A stretch of 64,000 nucleotides of DNA from Candidatus Bathyarchaeota archaeon (GTDB lineage: Archaea > Thermoproteota > Bathyarchaeia > Bathyarchaeales > Bathycorpusculaceae). Position 1 is the first letter of the stretch. Each line of letters opens with the position of its first letter. The position numbers and the translations under genes were made by a program. The stretch is taken from the NCBI GenBank assembly GCA_963768425.1, contig CAVYHV010000013.1:1-64000 (forward strand), in the 5' to 3' direction. Below the pieces are notes generated by a model that did not search any database, had not been told where the DNA came from, and saw only the letters and a program-made list of their open reading frames with translations. Below, in pieces: positions 38,774 through 52,277 of this stretch.

Positions 38774-38791
38774 TTGACTAACCTTAGTCAA
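38774..38791. repeat. Palindrome TTGACT-N6-AGTCAA, copy 1
   Basis: TTGACT AACCTT AGTCAA, 18 bp from the TATA box. Confidence 0.9.
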
Positions 38792-40006: not shown

Positions 40007-40024
40007 TTGACTAAGCTAAGTCAA
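40007..40024. repeat. Palindrome TTGACT-N6-AGTCAA, copy 2
   Basis: TTGACT AAGCTA AGTCAA, 18 bp from the TATA box. Confidence 0.9.
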
Positions 40025-43684: not shown

Positions 43685-44606
43685 CTATTGATTTAGTTTA
43701 GCGGTTTTTTGATGCCTTCTTCTATAAAAAACCAAGCTCAGAACTACTACTACTATGACGAATACTGCCGCACTCAAGGCAATAGCTATACTTAACGTTG
43801 GCTGGTTAGTCGGTGGAGGCAAAAAAGCCTCAGTCTTCACAAGATAGATATTGCCCGACATGGGAATATTAGACGCAAAATATCCGACTCCCAGTATAGC
43901 AAGTGCACCGTCAGAGGTTTCAATCACCGAACTTACCGTAAGAGAAGCAGGTAGGCTTGGAGCATATCCATAAGGAAGTGTATAGTTCAAATTTAATACC
44001 CATTGGGTGTTATTGTTGGAATCGGTCTTAATTATGAATCCACCTGTCCAAAAAACGAACCCATCATCGCTTGTTCTAATTTTTTCCGATTGATGAAGAA
44101 GTTCCACCCAAATTTGGTACGCTTGAATAGTTCTTGTTAGATTCAATGTTTCCTTCGGAATCCATTTTGATAACGGTTGGGTATGACTCATGAGGAGGAA
44201 GTTCATAATTACCCCAATTCCCTGAAACTTCAAGACCACCATCGCTTGTCTGCTTAATTGCCGTTCCAGCAAAGTTACCGATGGTTTTTGTCCAATTGAC
44301 ATTTCCTAAAGAGTTAACCTTGTAAACCGTTGCTGGTACAAAAGTATCTTGAAATCCCCAACCTTCGTCCATGAAGGCGTATCCACCATCACTTGTTTGA
44401 ATCAGATTGGATACAGCTTCAACACCTGAATTATTGAAATAATTACCTGTACTGTTAAAATAATTATCATAGTTTTGTTGCCAAGCAAGAGCTGGGGCTT
44501 GATTGTTTGACTGAGCTTTGACAATGGTTGGTTGAAGATTGAGTAAAGGTGTTAGAAGTAAAATAAGAATACCCATTAAAGCCAAACGTTTGTTCATTCT
44601 ACTCAA
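43685..44606 (-). CDS. Surface protein with QTSDGG beta-propeller repeats and TM anchor (frameshift near 44090)
   Basis: Repeats IQTSDGGY, KQTSDGG, RTSDDG, ETSDG with KxDxxGNxxW; tail RRRHQKTAKL. Confidence 0.8.
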
Positions 44607-44665
44607 TCTCTTCCTTAACCTGTCATGGGAACTATGCAGCGATAAAAGATTCCAGTAAAAGTTCC

Positions 44666-44683
44666 TTGACTTAGTTTAGTCAA
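44666..44683. repeat. Palindrome TTGACT-N6-AGTCAA, copy 5
   Basis: TTGACT TAGTTT AGTCAA, 17 bp from the TATA box and 5 bp from the IS end. Confidence 0.9.
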
Positions 44684-44688
44684 CGTTT

Positions 44689-46356
44689 GAGACCGTGTAA
44701 AAAATCGCATAACGACCGCTTGATAGCTTGAAAATTACACAGCACTATTCTCGCTTTTTCTTTTTCTTTGTTTATCTTTTAACAAGCGCACCGATTAGAG
44801 CTTCAACTCCAAGAATGTTCAAAGCTCTCCTCAAATTATAAGAAAACAAAAGCAACCCAATTTCCCCACTTACCTTCCTAAGACCTCTTAGCAACAAATA
44901 AGGAGCACCAAAAGCCCTCTTAACTGTCCCAAACGTATGCTCAACCACCTTTTTGCGCTCATCCATAACTTCTGGATGAGATCTCATTCGTTTTCTCATA
45001 TCGTCGACAACTTGCTCATGGACCCAGCGCCAAATCAACCGCCCCTTTTTGTTGCCTGTACATTTAGTCATAAAAAACTGGCAAGAAAAACAAACACCCT
45101 TCAAGCACTTGTAAATTCGCCTATCCACCCCATCCTGAACTGTACAGCAGTGAAAGAACAGGCGCTGTCCAGCCGGGCAAACATACAAATCAGCATCATT
45201 GTCATAGCGGAACTTGTCAGCGGTAAACTCTGGCGAAACTATACTTCCACCGCTTCCCGACCTCTTCACCGCAACAAATGGTGTAACTCCATTATCGACG
45301 CACTGCTTGATCTGCATAAAATCAAAATAACCCTTATCCCCAAGAGCATCAATCTGCTCAACACCCAGTGTTTCTTTAGCGCTTATAGCCACGCCGCTTA
45401 ATTGATTTAGGTCTGAGGCTTCGTTAGTCACCAAGTAGTTAACGATGAGGTGGTTTTTTGAATCTACAGCTGCCTGCATGTTATAGCAGGATTCTACTCT
45501 GCCATGACTCATCATCTGTCGACAATCCGGATCGGTCAAAGCAACCTCGTTTTGACCACTCTTTTGCATTCTGTCAAGGATTGCTTCAGATTTCTCTTTT
45601 TTCTCAAGTAAAGCTGCAAGCTTGTCTACTTCAAAAGCTTTAGCTTCTTTGCCTGCTTCGCTACTGGCTTGGTGCTCGTCAGATGCTTCCTTCTCATCTT
45701 GGGCATCCAACTCTTCAAGATAATGTTTTACTGATTTTTCCATGATCTTTATTCTTTTCGCAAGCGCTTTTTGGTTAAAGGCTTTATCGTTGGAGTTGAC
45801 GGCCTTTAGTTTGGTGCCGTCAACGGCTATTTGTTGTGCCCCATAGAGACTGAGGTCTTTTAGGAAGGCTACAAAGTCCTTGAATAGGGCACCTATTGCC
45901 TGTGGGTTGTCTTTTCTGAAATCCGCTATTGTTTTAAAGTCAGGTGTTAAGCCTTTGAGTAGCCACATTGCTTCGAGGTTTGTTTTGGATTCTCGTTCTA
46001 GCTTTCTGCTTGATCGGATGTGGTTTAAGGCCTCCGTAGAGGTAGAGTTTGCAGAGGTCTTTTGGGTTGTATGATGGTCTTCCAAGATCTTTTGGTGTTG
46101 AGTGGGTGAAGCCTAACTTTTCCATGTTAAGCGTGTTTACGTAGGCATCGATGAATCTGACCGGGTTGTCCGTTTGTACGTATTCTTCTATGGTTTTAGG
46201 CAGCAGGAACGTTTGGCTTCTGGATAAGCCTTCTACATAGCTGTTGGTTTCGTTGTCCATTTGTCTCACCTTACCCTTTGTGAGCCATTGCTATGTGTCT
46301 AGATTTAAGGTTAACGGGATTCTAAGCGATTAAGAGAAGACTTTTCACACGGTCTC
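44689..46356 (-). mobile_element. IS1182-family insertion sequence (1668 bp)
   Basis: Terminal inverted repeats GAGACCGTGTAAAAAATC / GAGACCGTGTGAAAAGTC (16/18); contains a transposase; no target duplication visible. Confidence 0.9.
44772..46269 (-). CDS. IS1182-family DDE transposase (frameshift near 46035)
   Basis: GRPSYNP..KLYLYG, IRSSRKLE..WLL..PDFKTIADFRK, VDGTK, TDPD, YNMQ, DKGY, YVCPAG, RKKVVEHTFG. Confidence 0.93.
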
Positions 46357-46361
46357 AAACT

Positions 46362-46379
46362 TTGACTTAACTTAGTCAA
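46362..46379. repeat. Palindrome TTGACT-N6-AGTCAA, copy 6 (inverted context)
   Basis: TTGACT TAACTT AGTCAA, 5 bp from the IS end and 18 bp from the TATA box CTTTTATC at 46398. Confidence 0.9.
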
Positions 46380-46435
46380 CGAAGTTTTACGAAAGGCCTT
46401 TTATCGTTTGAGAATTCGTTAATAAATTAAAGGTA

Positions 46436-46939
46436 ATGAGAGAAGAAAACAATGAAGACAATCAGTGCCATAATTGTAGCCCTTGTCATGGTTCTAATAG
46501 TTTTTGCAATAATAGGTTCAATGTCTTTGTGTATCCAATCGTAGCGGGTCAGAAACTAACTCTCCCAAATGAACAATGGGTACAATACAAACAGGGTTGG
46601 AAACTGATTTCATTTCATTATGTGCAATATGGTGCCATTTCCGCTATACTTTATGACCAGTTGTACGTGGAAGCTGATAATTACCCTTTGAATAATGGAT
46701 TTCCAGTGGGTCTCTACCCTATTACTCGAGGAGCTACCTACAATATGGATGGCACGATGAGAATAACGATATCAGAAATAAATTCGAATTATTTGGTTAT
46801 ATCTATCAGTTCTTCATTAAAAACATCCTTTTGGCAAACCACCAGCATAATATACATAATAGTAATCGAAATCTTGTTAGCCGTAATCATCGCACTACTG
46901 CTCCTGAGAAAACGAAAAACCGCTAACCTGAGTGAGTAG
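46436..46939 (+). CDS. Surface protein with TM anchor (true start probably 46452, frameshifted)
   Basis: MKTISAIIVALVMVLIV.. signal in another frame; TM followed by RKRKTANLSE. Confidence 0.65.
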   Translation: MREENNEDNQCHNCSPCHGSNSFCNNRFNVFVYPIVAGQKLTLPNEQWVQYKQGWKLISFHYVQYGAISAILYDQLYVEADNYPLNNGFPVGLYPITRGATYNMDGTMRITISEINSNYLVISISSSLKTSFWQTTSIIYIIVIEILLAVIIALLLLRKRKTANLSE

Positions 46940-47433
46940 ACCTTTTCCCACGAAAAATTGAAGAACTCACTGTTGCCATAGACTTAAACACTCTGGAAAT
47001 TCAAGAGCACGAAAGTTAAAAGTTATCTTCACCGAAAGATGAGTCAGGGAGTCAGTTTGAATCTTTTTCTGACCACGTTTTTTGTGTTTTTAACTTTTTG
47101 CCGAGAGAATAACAGTTCTACAAGGTGCTGGCTTCGGATGAAAGACCTAGGGATTTTGCTTTAGAATGGTTTCGATCATATCGCCCTGAATTCTCAGTTC
47201 CTTTGAAAGAAATCGACGAGAGGGCAAACTTCTTCAAAGATAGTCAGTTAGTTTATTAGCTGTAAACCTACAAAATATTTTTTATAAATAAAAATTAAAC
47301 ATCTTGATTCAAATTTTTCATAGTGGTAGAACCTAGAAAAAAGTACTAATAATGGTCCTTTCTTGTGCAAAACAAAAAATGGTCAGATAAGAAAGCTTAA
47401 GTGTTAAACCATCCATAAAAGTGCAGAGCGCTC

Positions 47434-48602
47434 ATGAAGTTGAAAGGTTCGCCTCTTAATCTGAACGTTTATGAAGCTTCTGAAACGCTGACAAACAAGC
47501 ATTTTCAGCAATTCAAAACGGTGGATTTTGAAAGATTCTATCTTCCTGAGAGCATGCGACCTTTCACTGACCTCATCCCTGTTGGCAAGAAAGAGTTTAT
47601 CGCGGATGACAACCGGGGAGCAGTTTCTACTTTACCCGCATTAAAATAGACGGCATGGACTTTTACCTATCAGTTAAAGGCATAGGTTCAACCACTAACC
47701 CGTTTTCAACTCAGCTCCTCGGCAAAGACGAAATATGCAGCCTGCTAAAGGATTCCATACTGAAAGACAGAATCGTGAATTCCGAGGGAATCGCTCCAAG
47801 ATACCTTACGGGGGAACTATGGTTAAGAGGCTCTCCATATGGTGGACAAGGACTTGAGCACGCGGCTACTGCGTTGAGGGTGTCAGAATTGGCTGCCCTT
47901 ACGTCTATTCACGGATTTAGAGTCGCGCCAGTTCTGAAAATCGTTTTCCTTCCCCCAGACCTTGAGAATGAAATCAAAAAAATATTTTGGTACCGCAGAT
48001 TCGCGGGCAAAATAGTTCAAGAAATACGGCTGGTTCCTTCTAACGTCCGAATTTATTTTCACGCAGGGAGCACAGTCGGAGGCAACATACACTCAATTTT
48101 TGACTTGTTTGGATTGGACAACAACGATAAAGCAGTTGATTTTCTGAAAAATTTCGTTAAAACCGGCATCGCCTACCTAACCCTGTTCCCCCGGACACTA
48201 AAGAAAAACGAAGATGGAACTTTTTCTGGCTTGGATTTCTATGATGTCTGGCTTGACAAGGACGCAGTGCTCGCTCCAGATGGCACTATTTACTTCGTTG
48301 ATCTTGAAGGGCTGGAATGGATAAATGTGGAGGAAAAGAAAATCTTGGAGAAGATTGAGGACCAGATCTACAGGTCCCTGTACGAATTCATGTATGCGTA
48401 TGAACAGATAGAACGAGAACGATTTGCAAGGTTCGGAGGTGTGGCTGACAGAAAGCTGCAGTTTGAATATCTTCTCAAGCAAACCCTCAGGGATGATGAA
48501 GTTATTGGCCTTGCAAGTGAGGGACAAAGTCTTAAGCTGGTCATCGGTAACATTCTTGGGGAACAACGTTTAACTAAAAAATTCCCAATCATGGACTGGT
48601 AA
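47434..48602 (+). CDS. Kinase-fold protein, distantly SelO/YdiU-like (frameshift near 47645)
   Basis: ADDNRG, LSVKGIGSTTNPFS, IRLVPSNVR, DKDAVL..IYFVDLE. Confidence 0.6.
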
Positions 48603-48612
48603 TTAAAATGAA

Positions 48613-50162
48613 ATGCAACGACGTAAGAATATTTTTCTCCCAGGTAGCTGGGAAATCAATTTCAATGCAGATTCCGCAAGCAGACCTGGATTTTTCTTAA
48701 GTGGCGGCTACCTTTCTGTGATGCAAAAAGAAGATTATGATCAGGCTTTAACCGAAGTTTCAAAATTGACGCAAGAGAACGTGGACTTGGCGAGTGAAGA
48801 GAACTCAGAAAGGGGCGCGAAGACCGCTCTGGACGAAGAGGAGAAGAAAACTCATTCTATAAAGTTTCTTTTTGAAGGAAAAGAGAACAAGGAAGCTGAA
48901 CGCGAGAAAGTCGATAGCGAAAAGAACGTTGTCTCAAAAATGGACGCTGACATAGCTGAACGAGACAACAAGATAAAAGAGCTAATCCAGAAGAAATCTA
49001 ATATTGACAGAATGGTGCCCTACGAGCGGAAAATATGTGTCGCTCACGGGCTTAGGCGTAATCACCTTAAACGATCTCAATGTCAGAAACTACAGGGTTT
49101 CCGCCAACGAGTTCTCAGACTTCATCGAAGAAACCACGGAAACTACCGATGAACTCAGAACCATAGCATACAAAGCCAACTTCTATGCGAACAGGTTCAA
49201 AGCTGAATTTCCAGAAGCCGACCTTTCCCAGCTTTGGAGCGTCTCAGTGGGATTGGGAAAGCTTCAGGGCGACCCCGACCAAATCAGCCAAAGATTCCTG
49301 CAAGCGACTGGCAGCCTGCAGCATTTCAAATCCACCGTCGAAAATAAGATGATGGCGGCGGAAATTATGACTGCCTTCAGGGGCAACCAATCTCAGCCGT
49401 TAATGGATTCCGACTTGCAGAACCTTTCAGCAACCTTGGGAAACCTTGACAAGGAAGTCAGACACGACAAGGTTCCAAAAGAGTTGTCGGTTGGGGTCGC
49501 ATGCCATTATTCTATTCGGAAGAAGATTTGACGGAACATTCCCTACTGACAGATTTGCGCAATTTTCCAAAATGACTTCTTCACCTGAATCAGCAGCAAT
49601 TCTAGCCGTGGTAAATGTCCCTTCAGACCAGCTGACGGCTAAATTCCAATCTTTCAGGTCAATGTTTGGATCCTGGGGGTACGAATTGTCGGAGGACACC
49701 GAACTTGCTTCTGCATATTTATCGATTTCAGATTTGGGTCCCGGCGAAGTAAACACGAAGTTGACAATAATCGTCGACGCCCTTAAGAACTACCTTGAGT
49801 ACCCCCTCGTCGCTTCCGCGATACTTGCGTCGATACCAACACTGGAAGCAAACGAGACCCTTGACTTGATGCAGAAAGCCTACTCTCTGCTTGGAACCCA
49901 AGCCACAGATCTGTTCCCCCCTGAACTACTGAGCCTTTCAGTTAGGATGATTCATGGAATCAAGAACGAGTTGGTGAAAGAACTTGATCCAACCGCGAAG
50001 CTCACCAATACCCCGATGCAGTTCACATACATCCCGTCAAACATATTCTTCTTCTATTATGGACCGCTGATTGTTGCACATTCATATTATTACTCCACTT
50101 TCAGCGGGATTGGAGGCTTCCATCCTGCACATGTGCACGGTGTAGGAGGATTCATGGGTTGA
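48613..50162 (+). CDS. Coiled-coil plus helical-repeat hypothetical protein (three frameshifted pieces)
   Basis: Overlapping ORFs 48613-49152, 49004-49531, 49446-50162; C-terminus FHPAHVHGVGGFMG. Confidence 0.6.
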
Positions 50163-51178
50163 CCTCGAAATCGCTTCTTCTAATTCTCGTACTTTCGGTG
50201 TTCTTAGCGGCTTACCCAGTCTTCGCCGCTGCAACATATGTGCCCCATCAAGGCGATTACTTCAACTATCACGAAGTGGAGAACCTTGGAAGCGGCACAG
50301 GCAGCTACGCTGGATACACTGAGCAGACAGTCGTGGATGGAAAGGAAACGATGAACACTGTCGATGCAAACGGAGTGGTGTCTGCCACATATGGCTACTC
50401 ATATACTTGGAGCAACAGCTCTGGCTCGACCGAAACTGGCAGCCAGTCGGGAACATTTACTTTCTCATCAGCCAACTTCTTTTACATCAACGGAACTGAC
50501 GATCAGACAGGGTATGTTAACCCAACGGTCTGGTTTTTGATGGATAACTCAATTTCTCAGGGGGGCACATTCACTATTCTTAGCACTGAGATGACGGTCA
50601 CATCCAGGAGTTACAATTACTACCTTTCTTCGCAGGACAAAAACGTGAACACCGTTTTTGCTCAGGGCGCCTCAAGCTATGATAGGAACGATAATTACGG
50701 ACAATTTACCGCCACCTACACATGGAAAGCCTACTTTGACCCAACCACGGGGTACATTATCGGGTACGAATACGTTGAACACGATACCAACCCTTCAGGC
50801 GACGGATTTACGTGGACCGACAACCTCTACGTGACCTCAACCAGCTACTCGCTGACTGCAGCTGTAGCAGGCAGTTCAGGCGCACCTGTTAATGTCGACC
50901 TCATAGCGGCAATAGTGCTGGTTATCGTAGTCATTGTGATCCTAATTATTGCGCTTTCGAGAAGAAGCAGAAGAAGCCTTCCGAAGCATAGTTCCCCGCA
51001 AGAATATTCCCCGCCGTCACAGCCACCACCGGCACCTCAAATTGATTTGACTCCGAAGCAACCGCCGGTACAGCAGATCGTGATTAAAGAGGTTGTGAAG
51101 GTAAAATGCCGTTACTGCGGAGCACTAATAGACTCCACAGCTCAAACTTGCCCTGTATGCGGAGCTCCCAGAACATGA
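50159..51178 (+). CDS. Secreted TM-anchored protein with cytoplasmic zinc ribbon
   Basis: Signal peptide, Y/T/S-rich domain, TM, Pro-rich linker, CRYCG..CPVCGA. Confidence 0.8.
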   Translation: MTSKSLLLILVLSVFLAAYPVFAAATYVPHQGDYFNYHEVENLGSGTGSYAGYTEQTVVDGKETMNTVDANGVVSATYGYSYTWSNSSGSTETGSQSGTFTFSSANFFYINGTDDQTGYVNPTVWFLMDNSISQGGTFTILSTEMTVTSRSYNYYLSSQDKNVNTVFAQGASSYDRNDNYGQFTATYTWKAYFDPTTGYIIGYEYVEHDTNPSGDGFTWTDNLYVTSTSYSLTAAVAGSSGAPVNVDLIAAIVLVIVVIVILIIALSRRSRRSLPKHSSPQEYSPPSQPPPAPQIDLTPKQPPVQQIVIKEVVKVKCRYCGALIDSTAQTCPVCGAPRT

Positions 51179-51291
51179 CATGGTACTAAATTTTTGTTTC
51201 CTTCTTTCTACCTAAATCCTTTCTAAAATACAGAAAAACCTCTCCATTTACGCCCATGTTCGCTTTCATGACGTTTCCTGAAGAAGCTATG

Positions 51292-51879
51292 TTATAACGG
51301 GAAATTTCGCAGAACGTTGAATGGGCACTGCTTTGACTTAAGCCAGAGAAGTCGCGCGTTCAAAATATCTTCACCCATTCCTATTCTCCTAAATTGAGGT
51401 TTCACATAAAGAGAGTGCAGTCTTCCAACACCATTCACAAGTGAAACCCAGCCTAACCCAGCAATTTCGTTCTTTAGCCTAACAAAAAAGCACATATCTC
51501 CGTTCTCAAACGCAACACTTACCCATCTTTTGTTTATCCCGGGGTGGGTCGAAGCCATAAATCGTTCTATTTCACTTACGTTTTGCTTCTCCACCGTGGA
51601 AATTTCATAGCTGAACTTGTGAGAAAGGGTAAGATTCTCTATATCTACGGCATAAATATCGTATAATTCGTGTTCATGCTCAGTTTTTAGCTCAGAAAAG
51701 ACCCAGTTGAACGGTTTTAACGCGTAAAAGTAGTCAAATACCTCTCTTGACCTAGTGTAAATTGATCCGCTTTTCTCCGAGTCGTCATACATGAATAAGC
51801 CTGAGGTAACTCCTTCGGAAGTCCTAGTTACATAAGCTTCACCGCCTATTTCCAGGATTTCTTTGGTGTGATATTCCAA
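51292..51879 (-). CDS. GNAT-family acetyltransferase (ends probably frameshifted)
   Basis: LHSLYVKPQFRRIGMG motif A. Confidence 0.75.
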   Translation of the reverse strand: MEYHTKEILEIGGEAYVTRTSEGVTSGLFMYDDSEKSGSIYTRSREVFDYFYALKPFNWVFSELKTEHEHELYDIYAVDIENLTLSHKFSYEISTVEKQNVSEIERFMASTHPGINKRWVSVAFENGDMCFFVRLKNEIAGLGWVSLVNGVGRLHSLYVKPQFRRIGMGEDILNARLLWLKSKQCPFNVLRNFPL

Positions 51880-52277
51880 GTAAGGTTCAAAAAACGAAAA
51901 GTCAGCAGGAAAGACAAAGTTAATGTCGGATGACGCTCATTAATTGGGAAACTTGCATTGCTCATATTACCCTTTTACAAATATGAATTTCAGCCTGATA
52001 AAACTTGAGTTCTCACTCAATTTAAACAGCTTAACATGCAAACGGAACCCTACAAGGTAGGATTGAGGCGTTTTTATATATAGTTTGAAAAGCCCACTTT
52101 ACTTGCGAAGTTATGCATATCTTAACACGTCGACTAACTAATTGTTCACAACATTTTTGACGTAAATAGTTCTCATTACGCGGATGTTACCTGTGATTAA
52201 CTCATTTCTTGAAGCCATTTTCTTGTTAACAAAATATGACGCAAGCGAGAGAACGAAAGCTTTAAATCTTTTTCGAT

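Follow-up and report, generated by a model that had tools for sequence, protein, structure and literature searches.

An IS1182-family insertion sequence of a Candidatus Bathyarchaeota archaeon appears to target promoter-associated dyads, and one copy probably marks a local rearrangement

The window considered here is a 64,000-nucleotide (nt) stretch of contig CAVYHV010000013.1 from a genome assembly of a Candidatus Bathyarchaeota archaeon (GCA_963768425.1), and the subject of this analysis is an insertion sequence (IS) of the IS1182 family that lies within it at 44689-46356. The IS separates a minus-strand gene on its left from a plus-strand gene on its right, and each of these genes is preceded by a promoter-like module that contains a perfect palindrome. 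Comparison with other copies of the same IS clade suggests that the element inserts at the centre of a short dyad belonging to such modules, and that the window copy, which is joined to halves of two different dyads, reflects a rearrangement rather than a simple insertion. The parts of the element are as follows.

44689 to 46356, minus strand: insertion sequence of the IS1182 family, 1668 bp, with ends set by alignment to the two other copies in the genome, to which it is 91% and 87% identical
44689 to 44706, plus strand: terminal inverted repeat GAGACCGTGTAAAAAATC at the end distal to the transposase start
46339 to 46356, minus strand: terminal inverted repeat GAGACCGTGTGAAAAGTC (given on the minus strand) at the end proximal to the transposase start
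44684 to 44688, no strand: left 5-bp spacer CGTTT, made up of a variable base and the 4-mer GTTT, in the register of the duplicated 4-mer of other copies
46357 to 46361, no strand: right 5-bp spacer AAACT, made up of the 4-mer AAAC and a variable base, in the register of the other copies
44772 to 46269, minus strand: transposase gene in two overlapping open reading frames (ORFs; 45940-46269 and 44772-46085), with matches to Pfam DUF772 and DDE_Tnp_1_6

The left junction reads TTGACTTAGTTTAGTCAA (44666-44683) and CGTTT (44684-44688), after which the IS begins with GAGACCGTGTAAAAAATC at 44689. At the right junction the IS ends in GACTTTTCACACGGTCTC (46356) and is followed by AAACT (46357-46361) and TTGACTTAACTTAGTCAA (46362-46379). 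Both junctions thus bear out the observation, made in a first-pass annotation of this DNA, that each IS end lies 5 bp from a perfect TTGACT-N6-AGTCAA palindrome, and the uninterrupted palindromes at 40007 and 42876 do read AGTCAA-AGTTT-C, as had been stated. The same annotation was right that the window copy has no target-site duplication: the 4-mers that flank it are GTTT (left) and AAAC (right), each the reverse complement of the other, and do not form a direct repeat. The two terminal inverted repeats agree at 16 of 18 positions. The interval 44666-46379 originally given includes, besides the IS, the two host palindromes. A 1714-bp element that incorporates these palindromes was considered and rejected: a palindrome is found on both sides in just one of the 29 two-ended copies described below, and the 18 other perfect palindromes in the genome are free of the IS.

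Elements of the IS1182 family are about 1.3 to 1.95 kb long (the ISfinder range) and carry terminal inverted repeats. Against the NCBIfam model for the family (NF033551, cut-off 270), an intact paralogue on contig C6 of the window's genome reaches 358 bits, and it falls under the cut-offs of the IS5 and IS4 models. The N-terminal DUF772 and the C-terminal DDE_Tnp_1_6 domains are found both in the window ORF and in the C6 protein. As judged by these model matches, the element is a member of the IS1182 family. The split of the window transposase comes down to one extra base relative to the C6 copy, in which the frame of 505 codons is intact. Public contigs from two sequencing runs are without one base at 46027, so that either an error of assembly or strain variation could account for the frameshift.

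Target choice was studied across copies that were gathered by similarity to the IS or its transposase, and never by their flanks, from the genome, its relatives and metagenome contigs. IS ends were located with up to three mismatches to the terminal motif, and in two-ended loci the unpaired ends were discarded before counting. After deduplication there remained 69 distinct 20-nt flanks and 29 distinct two-ended copies. The pentamer GTCAA is found exactly at positions -10 to -6 in 54 of the 69 flanks, where about 0.1 is expected (background frequency 0.0015 per position), and with at most one mismatch in 63. When the window genome's own copies are left out, it is still found there in 48 of 63 flanks.

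Most two-ended copies carry GTCAA on both sides, and therefore the target is a dyad. A perfect 4-bp duplication is present in 21 of the 29 two-ended copies, three others match at three of four positions, in two the 4-mers are inverted, and the last three lack a duplication. The duplicated 4-mers are mostly AAAC/GTTT, with AAAT, AAAG, ATTC (at two loci) and GATT also represented; because 4-mers such as ATTC, GATT and AAAT occur, the duplication is real and not a repeat that was already present in the module. Insertions are found in both orientations relative to the promoter, and some copies occupy dyads that have no full palindrome alongside. Taken from these flanks, the rule is that the IS inserts at the centre of a 16-bp dyad, (A/G)GTCAA-N6-TTGAC(T). 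Both of its ends come to lie 5 nt 3' of a GTCAA half-site, and the central 4 bp are normally duplicated. Dyads that are unoccupied read through without interruption as GTCAA-G-AAAC-T-TTGAC, and the genome of the window holds 22 unoccupied GTCAA-N6-TTGAC dyads, against about 6 expected.

The earlier proposal that this IS specifically targets the repeat is therefore strongly supported, with one correction: the target is the neighbouring GTCAA-N6-TTGAC dyad and not the palindrome, with which the dyad has one half-site in common. The genome holds three copies of the clade, namely the window copy and one each on contigs C6 and C10. The C6 copy reads TTAGTCAAG-AAAC, IS, AAAC-GTTGACA, and the C10 copy reads GGTCAAG-AAAC, IS, AAAC-CTTGACTAAAGTCAGTCAA, so that both have ordinary AAAC duplications.

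The dyads belong to a host module that flanks the IS on both sides. Its parts, together with the two adjoining genes, are listed here.

44666 to 44683, minus strand: palindrome TTGACTTAGTTTAGTCAA of the leftward promoter, composed of the right half-site of dyad 1 and the left half-site of dyad 2
44642 to 44665, minus strand: remainder of the leftward module, with GGAACT-TTTACT (the rest of dyad 2), GGAATC and a TATA-like TTTTAT at 44642-44647
46362 to 46379, plus strand: palindrome TTGACTTAACTTAGTCAA of the rightward promoter
46380 to 46404, plus strand: remainder of the rightward module, with CGAAGT-TTTACG, AAAGGCC and TTTTAT at 46399-46404
43685 to 44606, minus strand: left gene, in overlapping frames 44076-44606 and 43685-44302, with an N-terminal signal peptide, a C-terminal membrane helix and RRRHQKTAKLNQ
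46436 to 46939, plus strand: right gene, with a C-terminal membrane helix and RKRKTANLSE

The window contains six perfect palindromes, all between 38.7 and 46.4 kb (at 38774, 40007, 42876, 43621, 44666 and 46362). When up to two mismatches are allowed there are 12, against a mean of 3.99 in shuffled sequence, and 12 was reached in none of 100 shuffles. The five palindromes to the left of the IS lie upstream of minus-strand genes, and the sixth lies upstream of the plus-strand gene at 46436-46939, the product of which terminates in LLLRKRKTANLSE. Both the gene orientations and the basic C-terminal tails that had been described on either side of the IS are confirmed. Genome-wide there are 20 perfect palindromes. 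Oriented by the downstream gene, 16 of them have an ORF of 60 codons or more behind them; a TATA-like motif lies 17-21 nt downstream in 16 of the 20 (17 nt past the palindrome in the leftward promoter of the window), and in nine an ATG at +49 or +50 opens a signal-peptide-like ORF. These positions suggest a geometry that fits archaeal promoters giving leaderless messages.

In the conserved unit two dyads follow one another: first AGTCAA-GAAACT-TTGACT and, after 6 to about 27 bp, AGTCAA-GAAACC-TT(G/T)AC(G/A), with a TATA-like box behind them. Of 120 genomes of the genus, 72 have this pattern, and a control pattern had no matches in any. The TTGACT-N6-AGTCAA palindrome is the junction of two adjacent dyads rather than the conserved unit itself. 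Genomes that carry the module include some with no match to the window IS, such as one with 11 module matches (G046); because such module-rich genomes exist, the IS is seen to home to an element of the host. Across the genus, genes of the module encode a signal peptide, a C-terminal helix and an R/K-rich tail resembling KTANL. The dyads are putative operators or promoter elements of this family of secreted, C-terminally anchored proteins.

At the locus of one relative (L042, 2472-2500), the frame of an upstream family gene crosses the distal half-site and continues into the palindrome of the next gene; AGTCAAGAAACTTTGACT there translates as SQETLT, and the target dyad thus overlaps the coding tail. 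In the window, a signal-peptide-like start at 46453 lies in another frame than the right gene, which appears to be frameshifted. The left gene has an intact 312-codon counterpart in a relative, which matches across the two frames. The left gene, the right gene and the transposase (with its overlap at 45940-46085) all look frameshifted. Single-base indels at 44643 and 46027 are the sole differences between the window and public short-read contigs that are otherwise perfect matches, which suggests that the frameshifts are residual homopolymer errors in the assembly and not real pseudogenes.

Set against the target rule, the window copy is anomalous. A normal insertion has the distal half of the dyad on one side and the promoter-proximal half on the other (GTCAA-G-AAAC, IS, AAAC-N-TTGACT), whereas the window copy reads AGTCAA-C-GTTT, IS, AAAC-T-TTGACT, with the promoter-proximal half on both sides. 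Each side has a complete palindrome, a second dyad, a TATA-like motif and its own gene, and both distal halves (GTCAAG-AAAC) are absent. This is the sole copy among the 29 with promoter-proximal halves on both sides. One insertion with a 4-bp duplication cannot leave GTTT at one end and AAAC at the other. Since halves of two different dyads meet the IS here, the copy did not arise by simple insertion, and a rearrangement is indicated.

A single insertion would explain the flanks if it had made no duplication. The pre-insertion site would then have been AGTCAACGTTTAAACTTTGACT, in which two palindromes stand head to head 10 bp apart, separated by CGTTT-AAACT. The window flanks do form a near-perfect palindrome when joined, and a 10-bp spacer with IS ends 5 nt from the half-sites would be expected to give a blunt insertion. 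The related IS1272 is described as making no duplication (PMC5678879, PMC4923244). The clade of the window IS, however, makes a perfect 4-bp duplication in most of its copies, as counted above. A survey of double palindromes with spacers of 2-20 bp in the 120 genomes found seven, all with a 6-bp spacer and six with an ORF on only one side, and neither shared divergent promoter pairs nor an IS-free counterpart of a 10-bp site were seen. An insertion at a GTTT^AAAC centre, as the first-pass annotation had offered as an alternative, is thus disfavored in that form, and we regard a blunt insertion as very improbable.

A second locus provides a model of what may have occurred. In five relatives the C6 site is truly empty and reads TTAGTCAAG-AAAC-(CTTGACT...TTAGTCAAG)-AAAC-GTTGACA, with flanks that are 71-97% identical; a sixth relative has, by coordinates, the identical 29-nt spacing. 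The IS-bearing C6 allele is without the 29-nt inverted repeat in parentheses and without one AAAC. Because these are absent relative to the empty sites, the ends of the C6 copy lie in the centres of two neighboring dyads. At this one locus with true empty sites, then, the alignment indicates that a two-site junction with loss of DNA does occur. No empty site was found for the C10 copy, for which no relative has both flanks side by side.

The element is a site-specific member of the IS1182 family, and its window copy probably arose by a deletion-type event at two sites or by recombination between IS copies. The IS ends would have become joined, in their usual register, to the promoter-proximal halves of two dyads from two divergent promoters, and the DNA formerly between the two sites would have been lost. 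By a one-step route, the two IS ends would be captured by two sites, as at C6 and as for IS1272. Alternatively, homologous recombination between two directly repeated insertions would give the same product. The one-step event may have replaced whatever DNA separated two divergent sites. An inversion between two inverted copies is a less likely variant. A deletion-type junction is more economical than an inversion because no reciprocal copy is needed to give the same flanks.

Several observations weigh against this reading. No IS-free allele of the window locus was found in related genomes, the five relatives with an empty C6 site included. The closest relative, which is 95-97% identical in shared blocks, is fragmented, and both flanking genes are missing at the corresponding places; in 20-kb regions of eight other relatives only the block 47615-51936 is shared and the neighbors vary by genome, so that synteny is scrambled. 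The C6 allele can also be explained by an ordinary insertion followed by slippage between two 13-bp direct repeats (TTAGTCAAGAAAC). The support for an operator role of the dyads comes from their position and conservation. The left junction of the window copy is covered by a single 151-nt public contig, 18 nt of which lie in the IS, and the right junction by none. Finally, on the simplest reading of IS mosaicism it is the C6 copy and not the window copy that is recombinant. The segment 45313-46356 of the window IS is 94-100% identical to C6, with one segment of 208 nt fully identical, and the segment 44689-45312 is 75-85% identical to every other copy; the other segment is the one that C6 and C10 have in common. 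The mosaic pattern shows that IS copies do recombine, but it is no special mark of the window copy, and as evidence that this copy is a hybrid it was set aside as ambiguous.

Next to the locus there is also a break in synteny at 47373/47374. In the closest relative the block that begins at 47374 joins sequence 87% identical to the end of contig C9 (to about C9:278286), whereas the window has the right-hand gene and about 430 nt of unique DNA ahead of it.

The first-pass annotation had favored an inversion of part of the array of genes. Two opposite IS insertions would have recombined, or the IS would have undergone intramolecular replicative transposition, to invert the segment with the right gene and leave the window copy as a hybrid product. 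The flanks GTTT, IS, AAAC are those expected from an inversion between two AAAC-type insertions, insertions in both orientations are known in the clade, and the mosaic copies in the genome show recombination. A copy of the reciprocal type, with two distal halves (AGTCAAG-AAAC, IS, GTTT-CTTGAC), is present in another genome of the genus (L279), so products of this kind do arise there. That genome, however, has a single copy, with no window-type partner among its matches. The assembly of the window genome (33 contigs, 91% complete) has just the three clade copies, two of them with the ordinary duplications described above, and a BLAST search of the three copies against all 33 contigs gave no further copy and no fragment at contig ends, so that no reciprocal copy with the missing halves is present among them. 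The inverted part of the array would comprise one gene only, and if only the right gene had been inverted, the second copy would be expected just past 46950. Local alignment of 46940-47120 with eight IS ends placed none at a terminus and gave one internal match (score 23, against a shuffle maximum of 21), and homology to the post-stop module of the array stops at 46950, short of the expected position of the dyad. With three copies in all, no reciprocal copy and no remnant of an IS end downstream, inversion of part of the array is possible rather than shown, and we consider it unlikely.

The junctions could also be an artifact, in which two real copies that lie opposite to each other relative to their promoters were misjoined through shared IS sequence. 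The genome is a metagenome-assembled draft with 4.75% contamination, and about 1 kb of the window IS is nearly identical to C6, the fully identical 208-nt segment included. Public contigs also hold another copy with the same distal end and a different flank (X1 record 3). Against such a chimera, all three copies are embedded in long contigs with unique flanks, and contig ends carry neither leftover flanks nor IS ends. In well-matched pieces, the only differences from public short-read contigs are the two single-base indels (44643 and 46027), which suggests a long-read assembly, and such reads would presumably span 1.7 kb. The 151-nt public contig mentioned above crosses the left junction (132 nt of host sequence and 18 nt of IS). 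Public contigs from four runs cover the stretch in pieces of 117-433 nt, with no joint reported, which argues for neither side, and two loose-end flanks from public contigs are absent from the genome and from every collected locus. In our assessment there is a slim chance that the locus is chimeric.

Other subfamilies of the IS showed further features at their ends. A sister subfamily with CAGACTGTGTGAAAAGTCTCTT ends, about 67-70% identical, is represented by loci L005 (contig C19:3212-6643 of the window's genome, with IS ends at locus positions 410 and 2042), L036, L020, L037, L143 and L165. At both ends, 4 nt outside the conserved box, it has a sequence like the reverse complement of the 3' half of a tRNA, which in L036 includes the T-arm, the acceptor strand and CCA; ARAGORN reported no tRNA gene at the IS ends of this subfamily. 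A third subfamily (L019, L030, L031, L004 and L140, from relatives and contig C9) has (T)TAGCGCGC(A/T)NGNNTGT(T/C) directly outside GAGACCGTGTGAAAA at both ends, which represents either an extended inverted repeat or a further palindromic target. At least 122 stretches (L065-L186), drawn from archaea and many bacterial phyla, contain the 17-nt end motif AGACYGTGTRAAAARTC, which looks like a subterminal box conserved very widely in the transposon family. In one stretch from Myxococcota (L122), the IS-end motif is found three times head to tail with a period of 29 nt (GAGACCGTGTAAAAAGTCAATTGGCTGAA). Two copies about 11 kb apart on one contig of a relative (L275 and L276) share the same transposase-proximal flank, with two mismatches in 40 nt, in inverted orientation; only one of the two shows a duplication, a normal GTTT, and the pair looks like an inverted duplication associated with the IS.

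The closest parallel found is IS1272, also called TnSha1, an IS1182-family element of Staphylococcus that is described as using inverted-repeat or hairpin targets, which are replaced or partly deleted with no duplication (PMC4923244, PMC5678879). As far as the cited descriptions go, the window element resembles it in transposase family and in the use of an inverted-repeat target. It may also resemble it in removal of the target, if the 29-nt inverted repeat missing at C6 was lost on insertion and not by later slippage, and possibly in the history of the window copy. The two differ in that IS1272 is said there to recognize structure, with no primary-sequence consensus and never a duplication, whereas the window clade has the consensus TTAGTCAA-N-NNNN and usually the 4-bp duplication (21/29). 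The window element also has an archaeal host, and its target is a dyad upstream of a promoter rather than a terminator. The literature found on IS1182 target sites concerns Staphylococcus and Escherichia coli, and none of the papers found on insertion sequences and transposases of Bathyarchaeia, judged by title and abstract opening, deals with the window element.

Insertion at a fixed distance from a half-site is also described for ISAjo2 and its relatives in the IS1202 family, which lie 5 bp from a protein-binding site, the XerC half of pdif (PMC10132070). The distance is the same for the window IS, which differs in that it inserts in both orientations, against one for ISAjo2, in that it passes the IS1182 model and in that its target is symmetric. 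The ISAjo2 group had been cited in the first-pass annotation. Events termed IS-Del, in which a deletion ends on either side of a newly inserted IS that lacks a duplication, are described for other elements as well (bioRxiv 10.1101/2024.06.02.596822). The end-points of those events are not sequence-specific, whereas those of the window and C6 copies lie in the exact target register of two dyads.

REP-targeting insertion sequences of the IS1397 type belong to other families and have bacterial hosts, and REPs are structural or regulatory repeats downstream of genes. Homing of IS elements to REP palindromes, which are intergenic host repeats, has been reported (PMC1525189). The likeness, within what that report describes, is homing to a short, dispersed, palindromic repeat of the host in intergenic DNA, by which genes are spared; the window target differs in that it consists of operator-like dyads upstream of promoters.

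Natural insertion sites are numerous in the system described here, and for at least one of them a filled and an empty version can be matched. To our knowledge, target choice by DDE transposases is well understood for few elements, and IS1272 is the sole IS1182-family case that has been studied. The window clade, with its sharp sequence consensus, its regular 4-bp duplication and its two-site junctions, and IS1272 thus form a tractable contrast within one family. The analysis also marks out a conserved module, an operator-like dyad with a promoter, for a family of secreted proteins in uncultured archaea. A more speculative and rather improbable proposal is that the transposase, instead of reading naked DNA, is recruited by a host regulator of the paired GTCAA-N6-TTGAC operators, or copies its specificity, and that the pairing of operators permits integration at two operators at once. 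If this were true, the element would be an engine of operator-to-operator deletion and inversion, by which promoters and genes are reshuffled within a family of surface proteins of Bathyarchaeia. In short, an IS that homes to such sites can occupy regulatory DNA and spare genes, and yet drive local rearrangements.

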